Of a stretch of 64,000 bases of DNA, positions 1,526-57,128 are shown piece by piece; the stretch's first letter is position 1; every line of letters begins with the position of its first letter. Origin of the DNA: Patescibacteria group bacterium (GTDB taxonomy: Bacteria > Patescibacteriota > Minisyncoccia > Moranbacterales > UBA2206); NCBI GenBank assembly GCA_022709735.1, contig JAKLIG010000002.1, positions 65,949-129,948 of the forward strand. Direction: 5' to 3'. Under the pieces are notes generated by a model that did not search any database, was not told the origin of the DNA, and saw nothing but the letters and a program-made list of their open reading frames with translations. The position numbers and the translations under genes were made by a program.

Positions 1526-3088
1526 ATGGAAAAAAATAACTTACCAAAAAAATCAAACTGGAAATTGATGTATGAAGGACCTGACTTGGGTCATTTTCTA
1601 GCTAATCAAATATTCATCAAACCCTTTAGCCAAAAAAATAGCTTACTAAACAAATTAACCGGTTTTAAATATGACTATTATCTTTGGTATAGCGACGAAA
1701 ATGAATGTGGCGGAATTCATGGCGGATACTATCAAGAAAGTGATTTGAGAAGAGCTCTCGAAAAAGGAGAAAAACTATTTTTCAATAAAAAGTGGCTTGA
1801 GAAATGGTATCAATTAATAGATAGTGATTCAAAAAAAGTTGGCGAGCTTATGGAGAAATATAGCCTTGAAAAAAATATCAAAAAATACAACGCCACTAAA
1901 TTGCTGAAAATTATTCCAAAGATGATTACTTTGGAATATAGACTTCTTTCTTATGTGAGATGTAGTCAACCACAATTAACTGATGCTTTGAAAAATAAAC
2001 TCTACAAAAAAATAAGAAGGAAAATCAAAAATGAAAAAACCGTTGAGAAAATTTTCAACACACTTACGATGCCAGAAGAAAAATCCTTTTTCACCGAGGA
2101 AGAAATAGCTTGGCTATCAATTATAATAGAGGCCGAAGAAAAAATCCGAGAAAAAGAAATTAGACATCTCTCTGAAGAATTTTTATCTAATAATTATTTA
2201 GAGATATTTAAATCAATCAAAAATCACCTTGAAAAATATTCGCTGATACCCGCTAGCGACAGAACCCCAGCTTGGGATATTGAGCATTTTATTGAACTCT
2301 TAAAAAATAATTTAAGATCAGATATTAATCATCAAAACAAACAAAAAGAAATCATCAACCAATACAAAAATTCTAAAAAAATAAAAGAAAATATCATTAG
2401 AAAATATAATCTGGAATACAGTTGCCTTGAAATAGGAAGTAGGATTGCAAAAGTTGGATTCTATAGATTTAAGGCAAGTTTCTATTGGAGATGGATGGGA
2501 TATTATTTAGTTTTAATTTCAAAAAGATATTCTAAAAAATTAAACATATCCTTCAAAGAAATAACATCTCTAACAGAAAAAGAATTTATCGAGGCGATTA
2601 AAAGCAACCGACTTCCCCATAAAAAATATCTATCAAAAAGAGCAACAGCAGAACTCTATTTGCACCAAAAAGGAAAAAACTTTATTTGGTGGGGAGATGA
2701 AGCAATTAAGAAGAAAAAAGAGTTTTTGGGTAATAACATAGACGGGGCAACCGAACTAAAGGGAGAAATTGGAAGCATGGGGATGGTCAAGGGCAGGGCA
2801 TTTGTGTTTTATTGGAGTGACAATATAATCAAAAAAATGCAAAGCATGAGACAAGGAGACATTCTTGTCGCCCCACAAACTCATCCTACATATATGCCCG
2901 CCATAAGAATGGCGCAAGCTATGGTTTGCGATGAAGGCGGAGTTACTGGACATGCGGCAATAGTTGCTCGAGAACTCAAAAAACCTTGCGTCATAGGACT
3001 GCATACTGCTACCAAAATAATTAAAACTGGGGATGAAATTGAGGTTGATGCCAACAAAGGAATTGTTAGAATTATAAAAAGAAAATAA
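1526..3088 (+). CDS. protein with C-terminal PEP-utilising-enzyme mobile (phosphohistidine swivel) domain; N-terminal ~400 aa unassigned
   Basis: C-terminus carries GRAFVFYW...GDILVAPQTHPTYMPAIRMAQAMVCDEGGVTGHAAIVARELKKPCVIGL. This is the G-G-x-T-S/G-H-A-A-I-V-A-R-E-L-G-I-P-C-V-V-G signature of PEP synthase / PPDK / rifampin-phosphotransferase swivel domains. Confidence 0.6.
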   Translation: MEKNNLPKKSNWKLMYEGPDLGHFLANQIFIKPFSQKNSLLNKLTGFKYDYYLWYSDENECGGIHGGYYQESDLRRALEKGEKLFFNKKWLEKWYQLIDSDSKKVGELMEKYSLEKNIKKYNATKLLKIIPKMITLEYRLLSYVRCSQPQLTDALKNKLYKKIRRKIKNEKTVEKIFNTLTMPEEKSFFTEEEIAWLSIIIEAEEKIREKEIRHLSEEFLSNNYLEIFKSIKNHLEKYSLIPASDRTPAWDIEHFIELLKNNLRSDINHQNKQKEIINQYKNSKKIKENIIRKYNLEYSCLEIGSRIAKVGFYRFKASFYWRWMGYYLVLISKRYSKKLNISFKEITSLTEKEFIEAIKSNRLPHKKYLSKRATAELYLHQKGKNFIWWGDEAIKKKKEFLGNNIDGATELKGEIGSMGMVKGRAFVFYWSDNIIKKMQSMRQGDILVAPQTHPTYMPAIRMAQAMVCDEGGVTGHAAIVARELKKPCVIGLHTATKIIKTGDEIEVDANKGIVRIIKRK

Positions 3089-3109
3089 TTCTAGCTAAAA
3101 GTTGTCATA

Positions 3110-3142
3110 AAAAAACCACTCTTCACGAGTGGTTTTTTTGTG
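3110..3142 (+). terminator. rho-independent terminator after the PEP-utiliser gene
   Basis: aaaaaaccactcttcacgagtggtttttttg forms a perfect 9-bp stem followed by a T7 tract. Confidence 0.6.
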
Positions 3143-3229
3143 CCCTCAGTAGGAATCCCTGCCTGCCGGCAGGCAGGAAACCTACATCTCATTCTTAGGA
3201 CGGATTTGCTCCCCGCCTGCCATCGCCTG
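3141..3229 (-). pseudogene. partial duplicate of the tRNA-Arg 3' half (anticodon arm to 3' end), with a 20-bp perfect palindrome in the T-loop
   Basis: The minus strand reads AGCAAATCCGTCCTAAGAATGAGATGTAGGTTT[CCTGCCTGCCGGCAGGCAGG]GATTCCTACTGAGGGCAC. This is near-identical to positions ~22-73 of the adjacent intact tRNA but lacks the acceptor 5' strand and D-arm. Confidence 0.5.
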
Positions 3230-3301
3230 TGCCCTCAGTAGGAATCGAACCTACATCTCATCCTTAGGACGGATTTGCTCTATCCATTGAGCTATGAGGG
3301 C
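3230..3301 (-). tRNA. tRNA-Arg (anticodon CCU)
   Basis: Reverse complement GCCCTCATAGCTCAATGGATAGAGCAAATCCGTCCTAAGGATGAGATGTAGGTTCGATTCCTACTGAGGGCA folds as a cloverleaf. Acceptor stem is 7 bp, D-arm is GCTC/GAGC, anticodon loop is GTCCTAA, T-arm is GTAGG-TTCGATT-CCTAC. Confidence 0.8.
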
Positions 3302-3350
3302 AGAGGCAAAGGCGGGCAGGTATCCGTTGAACTACAGGGACAGAATTATT

Positions 3351-4283
3351 TTATACAGCTTCTCTTTTTATATTTTTCTTTTCCATATATTCGTCCAGCG
3401 CTTCATCTTCCCACGCTAATAGTTTACTTCCATAATGAGTTCCGCTACGTTCTTTGCCGCTTTCTTTTGCCTCTTCTTTTATACACTTTAAAATCAACTT
3501 GATTATCGTATTATTTTTTCGAAGCTTTTGATATGTATCATCATATAGAACATTCCTGTTTAATAGTATGCCATTATCTAATTGAAGATCAGCAATATAT
3601 AAACATCTCTTAAATTCTCTCTTGAGCATTTTTTCAATGACTGTGTCATCTTTTTCCTTCAAGGCTTTTTCAAAAACTGCATCGGGATAATTTTTGCCAG
3701 CTTCTTTTTCCAAAAGTTTTATTTGGTTATAATACTCATACTTTTTGCCATACGCAACCTGCATAAGTTTCTCCTTAGCCTCTAAATATTCCTTATATTT
3801 TTCAGGTTTATTAACTTTATTAATCTCTTCTAAAAAAGATTGAATATCTTCTTCGAAAGAAAAAGGCTCAGGATATTTTTTAAGAAACTCTTCTACATTT
3901 CTAGCATCAATTTCTTCATACGCATTGGCGTCATTTAAAACCAAACGAGCAATCATTCTTTCTATGTGTTTTTCTACCTGTTTATCTTCCGAAATTTCTC
4001 TGAATAACAAAGCTGGTTTGCCAGGATGTATGCCTGTAGAAATTTCTTCTAATTTCAATAATTCTTTAAAATCTTCCCTGGTAATTTCTCCGCCGGCAAC
4101 TTTTTTTAAGAATTCTTCTTTCGCTTTTATTTCCAAAACCAATCCTGTTTCGCCAAAAATCTTTGCATCTTTTTCTGACATAAAAATAATTATTTCTTTT
4201 TGTTTTTCAATATCAGGAGTTATTTCTTTTTCACCCATATTTTCTTTTTCCATTATTTTTGTAATTGATTCGGGATTGTACAT
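3351..4283 (-). CDS. hypothetical protein (acidic, Lys/Glu-rich, cytoplasmic)
   Basis: Long ORF (310 aa) with the local coding-like composition. No motif recognised. Confidence 0.45.
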   Translation of the reverse strand: MYNPESITKIMEKENMGEKEITPDIEKQKEIIIFMSEKDAKIFGETGLVLEIKAKEEFLKKVAGGEITREDFKELLKLEEISTGIHPGKPALLFREISEDKQVEKHIERMIARLVLNDANAYEEIDARNVEEFLKKYPEPFSFEEDIQSFLEEINKVNKPEKYKEYLEAKEKLMQVAYGKKYEYYNQIKLLEKEAGKNYPDAVFEKALKEKDDTVIEKMLKREFKRCLYIADLQLDNGILLNRNVLYDDTYQKLRKNNTIIKLILKCIKEEAKESGKERSGTHYGSKLLAWEDEALDEYMEKKNIKREAV

Positions 4284-4677: not shown

Positions 4678-4751
4678 TGGGTATATCCTGACTCGAACAG
4701 GAGACCTTTCCGATGTGAACGGAACGCTCTAACCAACTGAGCTATACACCC
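4678..4751 (-). tRNA. tRNA-Val (anticodon CAC)
   Basis: Reverse complement GGGTGTATAGCTCAGTTGGTTAGAGCGTTCCGTTCACATCGGAAAGGTCTCCTGTTCGAGTCAGGATATACCCA. Anticodon loop is TTCACAT. Confidence 0.8.
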
Positions 4752-4757
4752 AAAAGG

Positions 4758-4830
4758 TGGACCATACCGGGATCGAACCGGTCACCTCATCCGTGCCACG
4801 GATGCGCTCTACCAGATGAGCTAATGGCCC
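4758..4830 (-). tRNA. tRNA-Ala (anticodon GGC)
   Basis: Reverse complement GGGCCATTAGCTCATCTGGTAGAGCGCATCCGTGGCACGGATGAGGTGACCGGTTCGATCCCGGTATGGTCCA. G3:U70 pair is present. Anticodon loop is GTGGCAC. The 5' end overlaps the stop codon of the next ORF. Confidence 0.7.
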
Positions 4831-5600: not shown

Positions 5601-7172
5601 ATGGATTCAATAAAAATGCTTTGGGGTAAATTCAAAACTCAACCAGATATTTGGTTCTTTTTTGGATTTTTATTAACTTTTACCTTAAGTGTTCGAAAAG
5701 TACTGTTTTACTTTCCAATTCTTGGAACTTTTAATGAATATTCCGGGATGTATCTTTATATCTCTGATATATTTCTACTTTTAACCCTTCTTTCTTGGCT
5801 TATATCTATATTATGCAATAATAGTATTACTTTATCAAGATACTTGCCCCCCACTAAAAATCTATTATCTCATTACAAAACTTATTTAAAACAATTTTTA
5901 GTGGGGGGTGAACTGTGGATAAGTAATATATTTCACAGGTTATACATACTTTTACCATCTTTTTTAGTTTTACTTTCTTTTATATCAATTTTCTGGTCCC
6001 AAAATCAGTCAATAGCATTATTTAGATCTATTAAGCTTTTAGAGTTTTATTTACTCTATCTATACATTATCTTCCGCATTGTTCCACAATTGTTCCACGC
6101 TTGCCCGCCAGAAAAATGTTCCACGCTTGCCCCGTTAATCTTAGATGTTCCACGTGGAACATCTAAGATTATTACGGGGTGGAACAAACTACTTTTCGGC
6201 ACTATTATCTTTTTAGGCCTATTCCAAGCCATAATCGGCATTATCCAATTTTTCCTACAAAAATCTATCGGCCTATTTTGGCTCAAAGAAAGCCTAATTT
6301 CACCAGACATTCTTGGCGTGGCAAAAGTAATTTTAAATAGCGAAAAATTCATCCGCGCTTATGGTTTAATGCCACATCCTAATATTCTAGGAGGATTTCT
6401 ACTATTTTCAATTATTATAACTTTACTTTATCAAAAATGTTCCATGCGGAACATTAAAAATGGCATCTGGCTTTTTAGGCTTATTCTAACAATCCAAATT
6501 TTCTCTCTAATTTTAACTTTTTCAAAATCAGCCATAATTGGACTGCTTATCGCCTTAGTATATATTTATGTTTCACGTGGAACATTTATTAAGAACTTAA
6601 AGCAACTGCAAAATTTTAAACTTATAATTCTATCAGTCTTAATTATTTTATTTTCTAGTTTTATTTTAATCAAACCAGATCTGAATTCTCTATTTACCAA
6701 ATCTCTAAATGAACGTTTATTCTATCTGAATGTTCCACATGGAACATTCGTGGAACATCCAATTTTAGGAATTGGAACCGGACAATCGGTTTTAATGATG
6801 CAAAAATTTTATTCGCAAACTCTAAACTTCTGGGAATATCAGCCTGTTCATAATGTTTTTTTGCTTATCCTAAGCGAACTAGACGTATTCGGTCTTGGAG
6901 TATTTATTTGGTGGTTATGGGAATTGTTCCATGCAAAACAATTAAAAGAGAAGAATAACGAGTATATATTACAAAACAATAATACCACTTTGTCAAGTAT
7001 TGTTATCTCCCGCTATTTCAAAGGAATTCTTCTAGGTCTTATCTTTATAATGCTTTTTGATCATTATTTATGGGATATTCAGCAAGGAAGCTTTCTATTT
7101 TGGCTAACCGCCGGATTTGTTGCTGGAATAACCAAAAACTGGTATTGTGGAAATGAAATTGTAATTAGTTAG
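5601..7172 (+). CDS. O-antigen ligase/Wzy-like polytopic membrane protein carrying multiple in-frame palindromic repeat insertions
   Basis: At least 10 predicted TM helices. The C-terminal region carries the Wzy_C-like motif NERLFYLNVPHGTFVEHPILGIGTGQS. The reading frame stays open across 6 palindromic DNA repeats (see findings). Confidence 0.5.
   Translation: MDSIKMLWGKFKTQPDIWFFFGFLLTFTLSVRKVLFYFPILGTFNEYSGMYLYISDIFLLLTLLSWLISILCNNSITLSRYLPPTKNLLSHYKTYLKQFLVGGELWISNIFHRLYILLPSFLVLLSFISIFWSQNQSIALFRSIKLLEFYLLYLYIIFRIVPQLFHACPPEKCSTLAPLILDVPRGTSKIITGWNKLLFGTIIFLGLFQAIIGIIQFFLQKSIGLFWLKESLISPDILGVAKVILNSEKFIRAYGLMPHPNILGGFLLFSIIITLLYQKCSMRNIKNGIWLFRLILTIQIFSLILTFSKSAIIGLLIALVYIYVSRGTFIKNLKQLQNFKLIILSVLIILFSSFILIKPDLNSLFTKSLNERLFYLNVPHGTFVEHPILGIGTGQSVLMMQKFYSQTLNFWEYQPVHNVFLLILSELDVFGLGVFIWWLWELFHAKQLKEKNNEYILQNNNTTLSSIVISRYFKGILLGLIFIMLFDHYLWDIQQGSFLFWLTAGFVAGITKNWYCGNEIVIS
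6081..6190. repeat. nested palindromic element: 30-bp perfect palindrome tcttagatgttccacgtggaacatctaaga, preceded by two direct copies of gttccacgcttgcccg
   Basis: Read directly. The core ATGTTCCACGTGGAACAT recurs in degenerate form at ~6436-6455, 6568-6585, 6729-6760 and 6922-6941. Confidence 0.8.
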
Positions 7173-42841: not shown

Positions 42842-43930
42842 ATGAAATTAAAAAATCTTAATACAACTCTGCTTATCTTGGCGGGCTTATTGTGTTTAAG
42901 CTTGGCTTTTTTTGCAATGGCTGAGCAGAATTCTAGCGGAGCAAAAAACATTTTTTTAGATTCCGATCAAGACGGTCTGGCCGATACAGAAGAAAAAGCT
43001 TATGGCACTAATCCAAAAAATTCTGACACGGATGGCGATGGCTATTCTGACGGCGCTGAAGTAAAAGCCGGCTATAACCCTTTGAAAAAAGCGCCTGGAG
43101 ACAAATTATCCGAAACTCCCAAACAGGAAGTCAAGGGAGAAAGTATAACAGCTAAAATTAGCGGGGAAAATGATAAAAAAACGACAACAGATACCACAGC
43201 AAAGGAAGCTTCCGTCTCTGGAGAAAAAGAAAATTTAACTGAAAAAGTTGCTGGAAAAATATCTGCCCTCGCTAACCAAAAAGATCCAGCTAACCAAACA
43301 ATTGACATGGAAGATATTCAGGGAATATTAGATTCAATTATGAGCGGAGAAGATTTCAAAGATGAACTTCCTAAAGTTTCCAAGGATGATATAAAAATTT
43401 TGAAACAAAACTATGGAAATTTAAGCGAAAAAAAAGCCAAGGAAAAAAAGAAAGAAGACGCCATCAATTATTCCGTCGCCGTCCTTTATATTTTTACCAG
43501 CAATTCTCCAGAACCTCTTACTTCCTCCACTGATGCTATTTCTATTCTCCAAAAAACAATCAAACAAATTTCTTCCTCTTTCAACTCTGGCAATCCAGAA
43601 AGTCTGAATGATCTAAGCAATAGTGGGGAAAAAATTTATGAACAGCTAAAAGAAGTCGTTGTTCCAGAAGATATGACAGACACACAAATAAAGGCCTTGC
43701 AATATGCTCTTTATGCCCAAGATCTAAAAAATATAGTTAAATTAGATCAAGCAGATCCCCTCGCTAGCCTGTCCAATTATTCAAAAATTGCAAATTATGT
43801 TAAGAGCTTAAATGCTTTTTATGATGAAATAAAAAGCAAGCTTGACGACTACGGCATAGAATATAATGAAGTTCAAAGCAAGCTAGAAGATCACGGGATT
43901 AAGGCAGATATTTTTGGAACCCAAGAATAA
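42842..43930 (+). CDS. secreted protein with thrombospondin-type-3-like Ca-binding repeats (first gene of T4SS-like cluster)
   Basis: Signal peptide. DSDQDGLADTEE...NSDTDGDGYSDGAEVKAGYNP D-x-D-x-D-G repeats. Confidence 0.45.
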   Translation: MKLKNLNTTLLILAGLLCLSLAFFAMAEQNSSGAKNIFLDSDQDGLADTEEKAYGTNPKNSDTDGDGYSDGAEVKAGYNPLKKAPGDKLSETPKQEVKGESITAKISGENDKKTTTDTTAKEASVSGEKENLTEKVAGKISALANQKDPANQTIDMEDIQGILDSIMSGEDFKDELPKVSKDDIKILKQNYGNLSEKKAKEKKKEDAINYSVAVLYIFTSNSPEPLTSSTDAISILQKTIKQISSSFNSGNPESLNDLSNSGEKIYEQLKEVVVPEDMTDTQIKALQYALYAQDLKNIVKLDQADPLASLSNYSKIANYVKSLNAFYDEIKSKLDDYGIEYNEVQSKLEDHGIKADIFGTQE

Positions 43931-48686: not shown

Positions 48687-49085
48687 ATGTTATTCAATGT
48701 TCCACAATTTATCGATATTGAAGACAAAATTGTCGGCCCACTCACGGCCAAACAACTTGGTTGGCTTGGAATTGCTGGAGTTTTACTTCTTATTTTCTGG
48801 GGTACGCTCACTTTTTCCACTTTTGTCTTTGTCGCAATAATAACTCTTGGGATTTTTGGCGCCTTGGCATTTTATCGACCATATAACCAGCCCCTTTCAA
48901 ATCTTATAATGTCTGGAATAAATTATTTTATAAAACCGAAAGTCTATGTTTGGAAGAGATATTATGATAATATAAAAGCAACCAGCCAAGTTTCTGTTCA
49001 TCCTAAAGAAGAAGTTATTATTAGAAAAAAAGTTTTAGATAATAAAAAAATAGAAGAATTAACAAAAATACTAAATCAAAAATAA
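48687..49085 (+). CDS. VirB3/PrgI-like small two-TM protein
   Basis: 132 aa with two adjacent TM helices. It sits immediately upstream of VirB4, the conserved VirB3 position. Confidence 0.45.
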   Translation: MLFNVPQFIDIEDKIVGPLTAKQLGWLGIAGVLLLIFWGTLTFSTFVFVAIITLGIFGALAFYRPYNQPLSNLIMSGINYFIKPKVYVWKRYYDNIKATSQVSVHPKEEVIIRKKVLDNKKIEELTKILNQK

Positions 49086-49774
49086 TGGAATTTCTACATT
49101 CAAAAAAATTATCAAAAGAAGCGTCTTCTTCGCCTACCCAAAAATACTTGGATGTAGCAGAAATTAAAGATGATGTGGTTGTTCTGAAATCCGGCGCGCT
49201 TCGTTCTATTCTGGCGGTATCCGCAATCAACTTTGATTTGAAATCAACTGACGAGCAAGAAGCCATCATCAATCAATATCAGAATTTCTTGAATTCTGTA
49301 GATTTTCCTATCCAAATTCTAATCAGTTCTCGAAAACTGAATATGCAAACTTATCTTGACTATATCACCGAAAAGGAAAAAACCCAGTCAAGCGAACTTC
49401 TCCGAATGCAACTGGCAGAATACAAAAGTTTTATCGAGCAACTAGTAAGCGGTTCAAATATTATGGAAAAAAATTTCTATATAATTATCCCGTTTTCTCC
49501 AATTGAAAATCAAGAAAAAGGATTTTTTTCAAATATCGGAAGCCTCATGAACCCGCAGAAGAATATTCTAGAAAAAAGAGAGAATTTTGAAACATACAAA
49601 AACCAACTTTTTCAAAGAATCGACCATGTTATCGCTGCCCTCTCTGGAATTGGCTTGCGCATTGCGCCTCTCAAAACTGAAGAGCTTATTGAACTTTTGT
49701 TTGATTCCTACAATCCTGAAGTTTTCAATGCAACAGAACTTAAGGATATAAATAAATTAGAACTACAAAAATAA
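49085..49774 (+). CDS. VirB4/TraC N-terminal domain encoded as a separate ORF
   Basis: DDVVVLKSGALRSILAVSAINFDLKSTDEQEAIINQYQNFLNSVDFPIQIL matches the N-terminal domain of Gram-positive-type VirB4 (TcpF/Orf16-like). It ends in an A5 tract 4 nt before the next ORF, which is in the +1 frame. Confidence 0.55.
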   Translation: MEFLHSKKLSKEASSSPTQKYLDVAEIKDDVVVLKSGALRSILAVSAINFDLKSTDEQEAIINQYQNFLNSVDFPIQILISSRKLNMQTYLDYITEKEKTQSSELLRMQLAEYKSFIEQLVSGSNIMEKNFYIIIPFSPIENQEKGFFSNIGSLMNPQKNILEKRENFETYKNQLFQRIDHVIAALSGIGLRIAPLKTEELIELLFDSYNPEVFNATELKDINKLELQK

Positions 49775-49778
49775 ATTC

Positions 49779-51605
49779 ATGCTTAATTTATTCAAAAAAA
49801 ATACAAACACTCCTGCTCCCGCCAAACCGACTAATGAAGTTTTAGAATCAGAAAAATATTATCAAGAAGGGGTTTCTCGCCTCAACGATCTTTTGGCGCC
49901 CGCAGCTATAAAAGTAACTCCAAAATATATCCGAGTAGGCGAAACTCTCGCCCAAACTATTTTTGTCGTCGCTTATCCACGATTTCTAAATAGCAACTGG
50001 TTTTCACCGATTATAAACATCGACTTGCCGATAGATATTTCCATGTTTATTCATCCAATTGAAACTTACGACATTTTGAAAGATCTTAAAAAAAATGCCA
50101 CTCGAGTTGAATCACAACTTCATATCGAACAAGAAAAAGGTATGATTCGTGATCCTGCTCTCGAAACAGCCATTCAGGATATTGACGAACTTCGGGACAA
50201 ACTTCAACAAGGAACAGAAAAATTTTTCCGCTTTGGGCTCTATATCACTGCTTATGGAGAAAATGAAAAAGAACTTTCTGACATTTCTCGTTCCATTGAA
50301 GCAATTTTGGAAGCGCAATTGGTTTATATAAAACCGGCTATTTTTAAGTCTGAACAAGGATTCAATTCCACCCTTCCTCTTGCCAATGATGAATTAGACA
50401 TTGGAAGCAGCATGAATAGCGCTCCGCTTTCTACTACATTTCCTTTTGTTTCCTCCACCCTTTCTTCTAATGATGGAATTCTCTATGGAATAAACCGCCA
50501 CAACAATAGCTTGATTATTTTTGATCGATTCAAAATGGAAAACGCTAATATGGTAGTTTTTGCTAAATCTGGTGCTGGAAAAAGCTATACCATAAAGCTA
50601 GAAGTTCTCCGATCTCTTATGATGGGAACAGATGTTATTATTATTGATCCAGAAAATGAATACAAACATTTATGCGAAACAGTCGGTGGAACTTTTATAA
50701 AAATTTCCCTAAATTCCAACAACCATCTCAATCCTTTTGATTTACCACATATCAAAGAAGATGAGGATCCTGAAGATATCCTTCGAAATAACATTGCCAA
50801 TCTTCTCGGGCTTTTTCATATTATGCTTGGAAATATTACTCCAGAAGAAGATTCTATTTTAGGTCGAGCCATTCGGGAAACCTATGCTGTCCGCGATATT
50901 ACGGCTGAATCAAATTTCGATACTCTTACAAAAGAATCCTATCCCACCATGACTGATCTTTATCAAATTCTTCGCAGTATGGACGGCGGAGAAAACTTGG
51001 CCATTCGAATGGAAAAATATACGGAAGGAATTTTTTCAGGTTTCTTAAATAATACTACCAACATAAGCGTAAATAACCCGATGATGGTTTTCAATATCCG
51101 TGACATGGAAGAAGAATTGCGTCCAATTGCTATGTATATGGTAATGCAGTTTATTTGGAATGAAATGAGAACAACACTCAAGCGCCGGCTGGTTTTGGCC
51201 GATGAAGCTTGGGTAATGATGAAGTATGACGATGCTGCTTCTTTTATGTTCGGAATTGCTAAGCGTTGCCGAAAATATTATACCGGTCTCACTACCATCA
51301 CCCAGGATGTCAACGACTTTCTAAGCTCGCGCTACGGAAAAGCCATTGTCACCAACTCCTCAATTCAATTGCTTTTAAAACAATCGCCAGCCGCCGTGGA
51401 TGTTATCAGCGAAACTTTCTATCTCACTGACCAGGAAAAATTTCTTCTCTTGGAATCAAATGTCGGTGAAGGAATTTTTTTCGCTGGCACAAAGCATGTT
51501 GCTATTAAGGTTGTAGCTTCATATTCAGAGGATCAAATAATTACTACTGATCCAGCTCAACTTTTAGAAATTGAGCAAGCCAAAAAAGAATTCTCTGAAG
51601 AATAA
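49779..51605 (+). CDS. VirB4/TrbE-family T4SS ATPase (middle and C-terminal ATPase domains)
   Basis: YIRVGETLAQTIFVVAYPRFL middle-domain motif. Walker A AKSGAGKSY and Walker B RRLVLADEAW. Confidence 0.85.
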   Translation: MLNLFKKNTNTPAPAKPTNEVLESEKYYQEGVSRLNDLLAPAAIKVTPKYIRVGETLAQTIFVVAYPRFLNSNWFSPIINIDLPIDISMFIHPIETYDILKDLKKNATRVESQLHIEQEKGMIRDPALETAIQDIDELRDKLQQGTEKFFRFGLYITAYGENEKELSDISRSIEAILEAQLVYIKPAIFKSEQGFNSTLPLANDELDIGSSMNSAPLSTTFPFVSSTLSSNDGILYGINRHNNSLIIFDRFKMENANMVVFAKSGAGKSYTIKLEVLRSLMMGTDVIIIDPENEYKHLCETVGGTFIKISLNSNNHLNPFDLPHIKEDEDPEDILRNNIANLLGLFHIMLGNITPEEDSILGRAIRETYAVRDITAESNFDTLTKESYPTMTDLYQILRSMDGGENLAIRMEKYTEGIFSGFLNNTTNISVNNPMMVFNIRDMEEELRPIAMYMVMQFIWNEMRTTLKRRLVLADEAWVMMKYDDAASFMFGIAKRCRKYYTGLTTITQDVNDFLSSRYGKAIVTNSSIQLLLKQSPAAVDVISETFYLTDQEKFLLLESNVGEGIFFAGTKHVAIKVVASYSEDQIITTDPAQLLEIEQAKKEFSEE

Positions 51606-52199: not shown

Positions 52200-52880
52200 A
52201 TGCGCTATTATAGAAAAAAAAGTTTTTTGTCCCGCTTAACTAGCGTTTTTATCGATAATAAGGAAATTGCCATCACCTGCTTGGTAATTATTTTTTGTTT
52301 ACTTTTATCAATTATTTTTCCGGTCAACAATTCCGTCCAGCTTCTTACTCGAAATATTTTTTTTCTGATTATTGTTCCAATTCTTTATTATAAATTAATT
52401 CTTGGAAAAAGATTTTCCGACTTGGGCCTGATTTTAGGCGACAAAAGGGCGGGAATTTTTTGGGGAATTATTTTGTTCTTTGTTTCTCTTTTGATTTTTT
52501 ATCTTCTTTATACCTATACAGATTTTAAAAAAAATTATTTGCTTTCATCCTATGTCGTCCATAATTTCTGGCTTTTTTTGCTTTACGAGCTTTTACTCGC
52601 CAATCTTTTTGTTTTTATCCAAGAATTTTTTTGGCGCGGATTTATCTTACTTTATTTTTCCAAAAAAATATCTTACTTTTCAATTTTTTTACAATTTATT
52701 CTTTTCACATTGATGCTTATTCCAGCAAAAAATACTTTTTGGCAAATGGCACCAACACTAGTAATTTCCCTTTTTTCTGGTATAATTGTATACAAAAGCC
52801 GGTCTATTTTATATTCTTGGATTTTCGCTTTGTTTTCCCTGGTAATTTTAGATAGTTTCATAATCTATCATTTAAAATGA
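52200..52880 (+). CDS. CPBP-family (CAAX/Abi) intramembrane protease-like protein
   Basis: Polytopic. QEFFWRGF matches the EExxxR motif-1 region. Confidence 0.4.
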   Translation: MRYYRKKSFLSRLTSVFIDNKEIAITCLVIIFCLLLSIIFPVNNSVQLLTRNIFFLIIVPILYYKLILGKRFSDLGLILGDKRAGIFWGIILFFVSLLIFYLLYTYTDFKKNYLLSSYVVHNFWLFLLYELLLANLFVFIQEFFWRGFILLYFSKKISYFSIFLQFILFTLMLIPAKNTFWQMAPTLVISLFSGIIVYKSRSILYSWIFALFSLVILDSFIIYHLK

Positions 52881-55678: not shown

Positions 55679-56230
55679 ATGAAAAAAATATTTATATTTA
55701 CATTTATTTCTTTATTTGCTTTTCCTTCAATAACAGAGGCCTATTGTTCTTGCTACAATCGACAATATTTTGCAACTACAATTGGCGAGGAAATTACGGA
55801 AGATATAGGGGCTGATAAATGTGACCAAGAATGTGCCAATCGCAGAACGAAATACTATTGTCTTAAAGATGTTTGCGCATCATATGACATTGTTCCTATC
55901 ACAAAAACACCTACCACTACTGATACCACTACTATAGGAACCTACAAACCCATGGAAGAAATTCCAGGATTTGGAAGGCCAGAAAATTTTCCAGCATACC
56001 TTATGGCAATTTATAAATTTGGTCTTTGGGCAATCGGAATGTGCGCAGTTTTTATGATTATGATCGGCGGATATATGTATTTGACTTCTGCTGGCAACAA
56101 TACTCAAACTGGAAAAGCTAAGGGAATTATCACAGACGCTATAGCCGGACTTATCCTAGCGTTAGTTTCGTATCTTTTGCTTTATACAATCAATCCAGAT
56201 TTAGTCATATTTACATCTATAATAAAATAA
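55679..56230 (+). CDS. VirB2/TrbC-like pilin candidate
   Basis: Signal peptide, Cys-rich segment, then two hydrophobic helices (LMAIYKFGLWAIGMCAVFMIMIGGYMYL...AIAGLILALVSYLLLY) in the TrbC/VirB2 arrangement. Confidence 0.45.
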   Translation: MKKIFIFTFISLFAFPSITEAYCSCYNRQYFATTIGEEITEDIGADKCDQECANRRTKYYCLKDVCASYDIVPITKTPTTTDTTTIGTYKPMEEIPGFGRPENFPAYLMAIYKFGLWAIGMCAVFMIMIGGYMYLTSAGNNTQTGKAKGIITDAIAGLILALVSYLLLYTINPDLVIFTSIIK

Positions 56231-56243
56231 AAAATAAAAAACC

Positions 56244-57128
56244 ATGTTTTCTAAAAAAAGTTTTTTTGCAACAATCATAATTTTGCTGTTTTTATTTTTG
56301 CCCCTAGCCTTGATTAATGCTCAAGGTGTAGTTCCTTGCGGGCATGGCGATGATCCAAATAATGCTTGCACGCTTTGCCACCTAATCATCGGCATCAAAA
56401 AAATTATTGATTTTGGCTTGAAATTGCTTGTCGTTGTCGCATTTATTGGAATTTTTATCGCTGGCATAATGTATATCATTTCTTCCGGGTCTGAAGAGAT
56501 GATGAAACGTGCCAAGGCTTTTCTTACTGCCAGTCTTACTGGGTTTGCTATAACTTTAGGCGCATGGCTAATCGTAAATATTGTGATATGGAGCCTTTCT
56601 GCCAATCCCACAATAGGCATTAAAGGGGCTAATTGGTATACCTTTACTTGCAGTACTAAAAGCTCTGCTGCTAATCCAGCAGTAACAACCCCTAGCGCTC
56701 CTAGTGCGCCTAGCACACCTAATGCTCCTAGTGCTCCTGGAGGGGGAGGAACTGCTTCAGGATATACCTATGATCCAGGAATTCAATCTCAAGCATCAGA
56801 TGCCTCAGGAGATTTAACTCAACTTTTAAATTGCATGCAGCCGAAACTGCCTACTGAAGCCAAAAGAATCAGTTCTATTTCCGATTCACATGGAATGGAA
56901 AATTGTGCAGGAACAGCATGGGAAAGTAGTTGCGCTCATACAAAAGATTCTTGCCACTATGGTGGAAAAAATTCTAGTTGTATTGGGAAATCATATGCTG
57001 CTGATTTTGGAAATGAAAGCTATTCTAATCAAATAATTTCAACGGCGAGATCATGCGGAGCAAATTATGCAGTCATGGAAGGAAATCATGTCCATGTCAG
57101 CGTTGGAGCTTCTTGCGGATGTAACTAA
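56244..57128 (+). CDS. second VirB2/TrbC-like pilin domain fused to a Pro/Ala/Ser linker and a Cys-rich C-terminal domain
   Basis: Signal peptide. Pilin-like helices KLLVVVAFIGIFIAGIMYI / FAITLGAWLIVNIVIW. Linker PSAPSAPSTPNAPSAPGGGG. At least 8 Cys in the C-terminal 140 aa. Confidence 0.4.
   Translation: MFSKKSFFATIIILLFLFLPLALINAQGVVPCGHGDDPNNACTLCHLIIGIKKIIDFGLKLLVVVAFIGIFIAGIMYIISSGSEEMMKRAKAFLTASLTGFAITLGAWLIVNIVIWSLSANPTIGIKGANWYTFTCSTKSSAANPAVTTPSAPSAPSTPNAPSAPGGGGTASGYTYDPGIQSQASDASGDLTQLLNCMQPKLPTEAKRISSISDSHGMENCAGTAWESSCAHTKDSCHYGGKNSSCIGKSYAADFGNESYSNQIISTARSCGANYAVMEGNHVHVSVGASCGCN

Follow-up and report, generated by a model that had tools for sequence, protein, structure and literature searches.

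Among T4SS components, TrsD is the most abundant in Patescibacteria. It is described as "remotely homologous to the N-terminal portion of VirB4"; 2,272 homologues have been counted in this phylum, 1,664 of them adjoining virB4, and the protein is reported as essential in Ca. Southlakia epibionticum (PMC12102498, Quinonero-Coronel et al., Microb Genom 2025). VirB4 is likewise divided between two genes, at the same point, in the TrsD/TrsE (TraD/TraE) pair of the pGO1/pSK41-type conjugative plasmids of Firmicutes, which belong to the MPF_FATA subclass. In B. cereus, TrsD (345 aa) is followed by TrsE (627 aa), and in Pontibacillus a 274-aa protein precedes a 621-aa CD1110-family VirB4. In full-length VirB4 proteins, such as TrwK of R388, those of the CD1110 family and a protein of the Carboxydocella plasmid pCCELLA01 (Clostridia; a single fused product of 754 aa), one polypeptide instead comprises both the N-terminal domain and the ATPase. 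The N-terminal domains of R388 VirB4 link the protomers to one another, are embedded in the membrane and touch both VirB3 and VirB8 (roles summarised in PMC12857230).

The locus studied here lies in a stretch of 64,000 nucleotides from a member of Candidatus Moranbacteria (the window), in which a T4SS gene cluster is situated amid housekeeping genes. The cluster is chromosomal, whereas the pGO1/pSK41-type TrsD/TrsE pair serves in plasmid conjugation. It is organized as a tightly packed operon with the order PrgI/VirB3-like, TrsD-like, VirB4, which is also the order in the TrsD-containing systems of the same phylum (PMC12102498); as in those systems, a small homologue of the VirB4 N-terminus stands directly upstream of virB4. 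We found no substantive difference between the two, and the window represents a further, moranbacterial example of an ancient arrangement that is found throughout Patescibacteria and has already been described. The TrsD assignment was made here with NCBIfam, and in PMC12102498 with the MPF_FATA TrsD profile of CONJscan/MacSyFinder. On the evidence of sequence comparisons, the locus almost certainly encodes a stable two-gene VirB4, made up of a TrsD-like protein and an ATPase, and not a product of frameshift, error or gene decay.

The upstream gene, ORF1 (49085..49774, + strand), encodes a stand-alone TrsD-like protein of 229 aa, predicted to be the counterpart of the VirB4 N-terminal domain, as the first-pass annotation had proposed. 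It matches positions 87-234 of 894 in the NCBIfam VirB4_plasma model and positions 12-121 of 752 in the CD1110 model, and BLASTP aligns it with residues 10-127 of the pCCELLA01 protein (E 3e-18). A Foldseek search of its AlphaFold model against the PDB returned R388 TrwK/VirB4 chains as all of the top 14 matches; the quality of this model is moderate (pLDDT 70), and its TM-score to TrwK is 0.44. The fold thus resembles that of a domain which in TrwK is joined to the ATPase and here is encoded apart from it. The score against the NCBIfam TrsD/TraD model (NF041427) is 34.6 bits (E 1.6e-8), far below the curated cut-off of 200 bits. Together with the homology to the VirB4 N-terminal portion seen by NCBIfam, BLASTP and Foldseek, and with the position of this small stand-alone protein immediately upstream of a VirB4-like ATPase in the window and in 39 further species, this indicates that ORF1 is a remote relative of TrsD/TraD, to which its homology is significant, and not a member of that family in the strict sense. 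The profile of ORF1 aligns to residues 133-261 of B. cereus TrsD with 94% probability; compared with ORF1, the B. cereus protein is extended at its N-terminus by about 130 aa. A search of PDB sequences with phmmer gave no match to ORF1, and a scan against a local copy of Pfam gave none even at E 10; PF26593 is listed as precomputed for every ORF1 homologue in the protein database.

The downstream gene, ORF2 (49779..51605, + strand), encodes a VirB4/TrsE-type T4SS ATPase of 608 aa that lacks the N-terminal domain. Its match to NF045971 (conju_CD1110; 364.7 bits, with the curated cut-off at 325) covers positions 185-734 of 752 and agrees with the earlier assignment of ORF2 to the middle and ATPase domains; the part of the model before position 185 is the one matched by ORF1. 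A Walker A motif (KSGAGKS) and a Walker B motif (LVLADEA) can be read in the translation, and ORF2 further matches Pfam P-loop_TraG (1.4e-31), the VirB4 C-terminal domain structure 4ag5 in the PDB (1.6e-49) and residues 299-735 of TrwK. Residues 39-587 align to residues 35-615 of B. cereus TrsE (E 4e-57), and the protein is accordingly predicted to be the TrsE counterpart, with a middle domain and a P-loop ATPase. Identity between the Firmicutes pair and ORF1/ORF2 is low, about 25-30%. The two products are collinear with full-length VirB4: residues 18-788 of a virtual fusion align in one stretch to positions 8-724 of 792 of TIGR00929 (VirB4_CagE), and the same fusion is collinear with the pCCELLA01 protein.

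Re-reading the sequence confirmed the coordinates of both ORFs, the +1 frame of ORF2 relative to ORF1 (49779-49085 = 694 = 3x231+1) and a run of five A residues at 49767..49771 (+ strand) within the final codons of ORF1 (CAA AAA TAA). The ORF1 stop codon (TAA, 49772-74) and a 4-nt intercistronic spacer (attc) together occupy 49772..49778 (+ strand), and the ATG of ORF2 follows at 49779. The two frames had been said to overlap; the ORFs themselves are separated by the spacer, and it is only over 49761-49771 (11 nt) that both frames are open, the ORF2 frame being closed upstream by a TAG at 49758-60. The related statement that a single-A change would fuse the ORFs into a protein of about 837 aa holds for a deletion, which, like a +1 shift, gives a fusion of 839 aa with the junction-spanning peptide …LELQNKFMLNLF…, and fails for an insertion, which leads into the third frame. 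As a homopolymer the A5 run is unremarkable: runs of at least five A residues number 653 in the window, about 10 per kb.

This layout might be read as a homopolymer error of sequencing or assembly, such that the true genome has four A residues and one 839-aa VirB4; the joining of the frames by deletion of a single A and the occurrence of fused VirB4 proteins in other lineages would both agree with it. We consider this reading virtually untenable. Longer in-frame runs (A7, A8 and T7) were assembled intact within both ORFs, without frame breaks, and identical copies of the 229-aa protein are on record from 3 contigs and several sources. Homologues of ORF1 number 1,298, and each of the best 120 measures 220-244 aa (71-100% identity), close to the 229 aa of ORF1; among the 2,343 representatives at 50% clustering the best 150 span 132-443 aa. 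No homologue of VirB4 length occurs among the best 120 of the former or the best 150 of the latter.

Further evidence against an error comes from the junction in other species. We compared 46 loci from different GTDB species, 39 of which have an ORF2 orthologue directly downstream, giving 40 junctions with that of the window. In all 39 the ORF1 orthologue is terminated by a stop codon at a length of 226-232 aa, with a conserved C-terminus, and the ORF2 orthologue has its own ATG and a conserved N-terminus (M-L/F-N/D-F/L-F/L-K-K-N). The stop thus stands at the same position amid differing junction sequences, including CAA-TAA, AAA-TGA and long spacers with in-frame stops. A fused trsD-virB4 gene was found at none of the 39 orthologous loci, and a fusion in the window would set this genome apart from its relatives. 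The comparison of fused and split orthologues suggested in the first-pass annotation therefore gave a split at non-homopolymer positions in 39 of 39, and of the explanations listed there the genuinely split VirB4 proved correct. In one locus (L043), an 845-aa ORF downstream of the ORF1 homologue was considered as a possible full-length VirB4 and rejected, as it is a penicillin-binding protein.

The collinearity of ORF1 and ORF2 with full-length VirB4 could also reflect a recent pseudogenising frameshift in a once full-length gene, which is as improbable as an error in the assembly. The dN/dS values are 0.03-0.06 for ORF1 and 0.01-0.04 for ORF2, with synonymous sites ranging from 0.2 to saturation between species, indicating that both are under strong purifying selection, with no sign of the relaxation expected under decay. 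Moreover, the split is common to the 39 species, none of which has an intact fused orthologue, and to Firmicutes TrsD/TrsE, where it falls at the same point, and both the C-terminus of ORF1 and the N-terminus of ORF2 have been kept.

The AAA preceding the stop, with the +1 frame open, formally provides a site for a programmed +1 ribosomal frameshift at AAA-UAA, or for transcriptional slippage on the A5 run, by which some fused VirB4 would be made beside the two proteins. Such a shift is very doubtful, if marginally less so than error or decay. The motif is unconserved: an A5 run in the jointly open stretch occurs in the window only (1 of 40 junctions), with three other loci having A4. The relation between the frames is likewise inconstant (offset 2 in 20 junctions, offset 1 in 17, offset 0 in 3), and the gaps are -1, +1, +4, +11 to +36 or +80 to +245 nt. 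A +1 shift would in addition require the tRNA-Lys to re-pair on AAU, and ORF2 has a conserved ATG of its own. An A5 run is too short for efficient transcriptional slippage, for which stretches of about 8-9 or more are required. Hence all three homopolymer readings raised by the earlier annotation (assembly error, recent pseudogenising frameshift, programmed frameshift or slippage) are contradicted by the conservation of stop and ATG in 39 species, the varied spacers, the lack of A5 at the boundary in these loci and the dN/dS of 0.01-0.06. The A5 run is best regarded as coincidental, the end of the gene being AT-rich and lysine-rich, and not as a conserved slippery site.

In practical terms, a VirB4 that appears "frameshifted" in Patescibacteria or in pGO1-type systems of Firmicutes is a normal TrsD + VirB4 pair, and such gene pairs should not be merged, flagged as pseudogenes or "corrected". 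The role of a free N-terminal-domain protein in a T4SS that is essential for an epibiotic lifestyle is a question already recognised in the literature, to which this locus adds nothing new.

With ORF1 and ORF2 each having its own start and stop codon, 4 nt apart in the window, ORF2 would be translated by coupling or re-initiation rather than by frameshifting. The neighbouring junctions of the operon are of comparable size (+1, -1, +4, +3, -4 and +9 nt), and translational coupling across the compact ORF1/ORF2 junction is likely. By analogy with the R388 structure, the free ORF1 protein may bind the ORF2 ATPase and the VirB3-like PrgI protein non-covalently, and this binding might anchor the ring of the ATPase at the membrane channel. 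The palindromic element that occupies the ORF1/ORF2 gap in relatives also lies in nearby intergenic gaps there, and the boundary thus behaves as ordinary intergenic DNA; no hairpin or palindromic element of this kind was seen within 42-58.5 kb of the window. It is conceivable, though improbable, that separating the N-terminal domain sets its dosage apart from that of the ATPase, with the palindromes in the gaps of relatives forming intercistronic RNA stem-loops that tune the ratio; a still less likely variant would add a little fused VirB4 through a +1 shift at AAA-UAA.

Two genes upstream of ORF2 lies another T4SS component, a small membrane protein of the PrgI family (VirB3-like; 48687..49085, + strand; Pfam PF12666, 38 bits, cut-off 27), whose stop codon shares 1 nt with the start codon of ORF1 (TAATG). 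Neither a relaxase nor a coupling protein was identified among the ORFs scanned at 30-61 kb of the window. Two T4SS-pilin-like ORFs of this gene cluster (55679..57128, + strand) give weak matches to PF18895 (T4SS_pilin; 24.4 and 18.7 bits, below the cut-off of 26.6), a further likeness to the patescibacterial TrsD + VirB4 systems, in which the cluster also holds VirB2-like pilin genes (PMC12102498).

The two genes lie on the forward strand of the window: ORF1, a TrsD-like gene (49085..49774), encodes 229 aa and stops with a TAA at 49772-74, and ORF2 (49779..51605) encodes 608 aa in the +1 frame relative to ORF1, with a run of five As (A5) at 49767-71. Our reading of the window sequence agrees with the first-pass annotation on both ORFs, their relative frame and the A5, but not on the overlap of ORF1 and ORF2 that it described, as the two are separated by a 4-nt spacer. 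The frame of ORF2 is open only from a TAG at 49758-60 onwards, and a frame change could therefore fuse the genes only within 49761-49771. The proposal that a single-A change would fuse them holds for a one-A deletion (or a +1 shift), which alone yields an 839-aa product, and fails for any other single-A change. The A5 run is not unusual, because the AT-rich window (GC about 35%) contains 653 A-runs of at least five bases, about 10 per kb, and longer in-frame runs (A7, A8, T7) occur within both ORFs.

As judged from its sequence, ORF2 is a VirB4-type ATPase: it matches the NCBIfam model conju_CD1110 (364.7 bits; cut-off 325) over positions 185-734 of 752 only, Pfam P-loop_TraG, the solved VirB4 C-terminal domain 4ag5 (E 1.6e-49), and residues 299-735 of TrwK, the VirB4 of R388. 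ORF1 corresponds to the N-terminal part absent from ORF2, matching positions 12-121 of CD1110 and 87-234 of 894 of VirB4_plasma; its match to the stand-alone TrsD/TraD family (E 1.6e-8) falls under the curated cut-off of that family. The 14 best PDB matches of its AlphaFold2 model (mean pLDDT 70) are R388 TrwK/VirB4 chains (E down to 2e-4, probability 1.0, TM-score 0.44), and nothing else in this fold search was significant. A scan of ORF1 against a local Pfam-A returned no family even at E 10, and every ORF1 homologue in the protein database (window 49085-49774 and the listed proteins P0001-P0120) carries a precomputed PF26593 assignment, the difference being one of library or version.

The earlier suggestion that ORF1 and ORF2 together represent one full-length VirB4 is borne out by their collinearity with two references. 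When the two are joined in silico, residues 18-788 align in one stretch to positions 8-724 of 792 of TIGR00929 VirB4_CagE. A single 754-aa protein of Carboxydocella plasmid pCCELLA01, a fused state unlike the two genes of the window, is likewise collinear, with ORF1 17-135 aligning to residues 10-127 (E 3e-18) and the remainder to 101-750 (E 5e-64).

The first-pass annotation had also entertained an assembly error at the A5, a recent pseudogene, and programmed frameshifting or slippage. A search with ORF1 recovered 1,298 homologues; the lengths of the best 120 (71-100% identity, mostly from Candidatus Moranbacteria or Patescibacteria) all fall within 220-244 aa. A wider search of 1.84 billion cluster representatives gave 2,343 relatives; lengths among the best 150 span 132-443 aa, and no protein of VirB4 length is included. 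We then surveyed 46 loci with ORF1 homologues from different GTDB species. An ORF2 orthologue follows in 39, and in all 39 ORF1 stops after 226-232 aa, ORF2 starts at an ATG of its own with a conserved N-terminus, and no A5 is found at the boundary. The gaps are -1 (TAATG), +1, +4, +11 to +36 and +80 to +245 nt; over 40 junctions, including that of the window, the frame offset is 2 in 20, 1 in 17 and 0 in 3. dN/dS is 0.03-0.06 for ORF1 and 0.01-0.04 for ORF2, at synonymous divergence from 0.2 to saturation. Taken together, the conserved junctions, lengths and dN/dS values exclude a recent pseudogene and make an assembly error implausible, as the same split occurs in 39 loci lacking the A5; nor do the junctions conserve any signal that programmed frameshifting or slippage could use, given all three frame offsets and gaps of up to +245 nt. 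We reject the readings based on a frameshift or on the homopolymer. The same observations support the remaining option of the first-pass annotation, a genuine two-gene architecture, of which we are highly confident; orthologues split away from a homopolymer were an outcome that this annotation itself had set against a frameshift.

This arrangement is already known from Patescibacteria and pGO1-type Firmicutes systems. On Bacillus cereus plasmid pH308197_73, a gene for TrsD (345 aa) precedes that for TrsE (627 aa); TrsE 35-615 is matched by ORF2 residues 39-587 (E 4e-57) and TrsD 133-261 by the ORF1 family profile (94% probability), so the split point is the same in both. The pair recurs on a Pontibacillus plasmid, where an ORF1-like gene (274 aa) precedes one for a 621-aa protein (PGAP: CD1110-family VirB4). 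A survey of Patescibacteria (Quinonero-Coronel et al., Microb Genom 2025, PMC12102498) described TrsD as a remote homologue of the VirB4 N-terminal portion and as the most abundant T4SS component there, reported 2,272 TrsD homologues, 1,664 of them virB4-associated, and listed that of Ca. Southlakia epibionticum ML1 as essential.

ORF1 and ORF2 belong to a tightly packed same-strand cluster (gaps +1, -1, +4, +3, +24, -4, +9, +13 and +12 nt). The start of ORF1 overlaps the stop of the PrgI/VirB3-like gene that directly precedes it; downstream lie a CPBP-family protease gene and two weakly matching T4SS-pilin-like ORFs. The flanking housekeeping genes (PNPase, a KsgA-type methyltransferase, a ComM/Mg-chelatase-like protein and O-antigen-ligase-like proteins) point to a T4SS that is chromosomal, not one on an obvious plasmid or ICE. 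The ORF1|ORF2 junction resembles all others of the operon, which would fit translational coupling, with ORF2 translated from its own ATG and probably coupled to ORF1 termination.

A full-length VirB4 is made up here of two separately encoded and separately conserved proteins. In R388 the VirB4 N-terminal domains join both protomers of each dimer, are embedded in the inner membrane and touch VirB3 and VirB8, according to a review of 2025 (PMC12857230). ORF1 may act as a detached N-terminal domain; by non-covalent contacts with the ATPase and with the VirB3-like PrgI protein, it would hold the ring of the ATPase in place at the membrane channel. Our confidence in this adaptor role is lower than in the two-gene architecture, as it rests on analogy.

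The CPBP/Rce1-like intramembrane protease gene (52200-52880, +; Pfam 1.7e-07; NCBIfam MrtA-like 3.9e-08, under cut-off) overlaps the next, 930-aa gene of the cluster by 4 nt, and the pilin-like ORFs follow some kilobases further downstream. Pilins or another component of the T4SS might be substrates of the protease.

An 80-245-nt, near-perfect and very stable palindrome fills the ORF1|ORF2 spacer of many Moranbacteria relatives (MFE z-scores -4 to -12; loci L001, L002, L003, L004, L005, L008, L015, L023, L026, L029, L034 and L038), varying in sequence between lineages. None like it occurs in the T4SS cluster of the window. Copies of the same element occupy neighbouring gaps of the operon in L003, L004, L008, L023 and L026; in L003 they fill three successive gaps (PrgI|TrsD, 3911-3995; TrsD|VirB4, 4691-4782; VirB4|next gene, 6609-6736), the copies being 100% identical upstream of ORF1 and about 97% downstream of ORF2. 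These look like REP/MITE-like intergenic palindromes.

Orphan TrsD genes, distant homologues of ORF1 (37-41% identity) without a following VirB4, occur in L042-L046 (e.g. L043:2526-3215 and L045:3932-4660), in agreement with the Gracilibacteria exception reported in PMC12102498. Their neighbours are a penicillin-binding protein in L043, rRNA-like sequence (judged by eye only) after the gene in L044, and a GT2 glycosyltransferase and a weakly matching TSP3-repeat protein (2703-3884, -) in L045. A bacterial TSP3-repeat protein (42842-43930, +) also stands at the upstream edge of the T4SS cluster of the window, and may be a recurring neighbour.

Among the surveyed loci, the virB4 of L009 contains an N-run, and that of L024 (CAYLWX010000001.1), which is 80% identical to ORF2 along its entire length, is interrupted by one in-frame TAG (codon 18, about 113 nt past the ORF1 stop), with a sequencing error, a pseudogene or a restart further downstream as candidate explanations. 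L010, L021, L024, L030 and L033 are titled 'uncultured Bdellovibrionales bacterium' and carry a Moranbacteria-type TrsD-VirB4 locus (61-76% identity), and L041 is titled Saccharibacteria; these titles probably reflect mislabelled MAG taxonomy.
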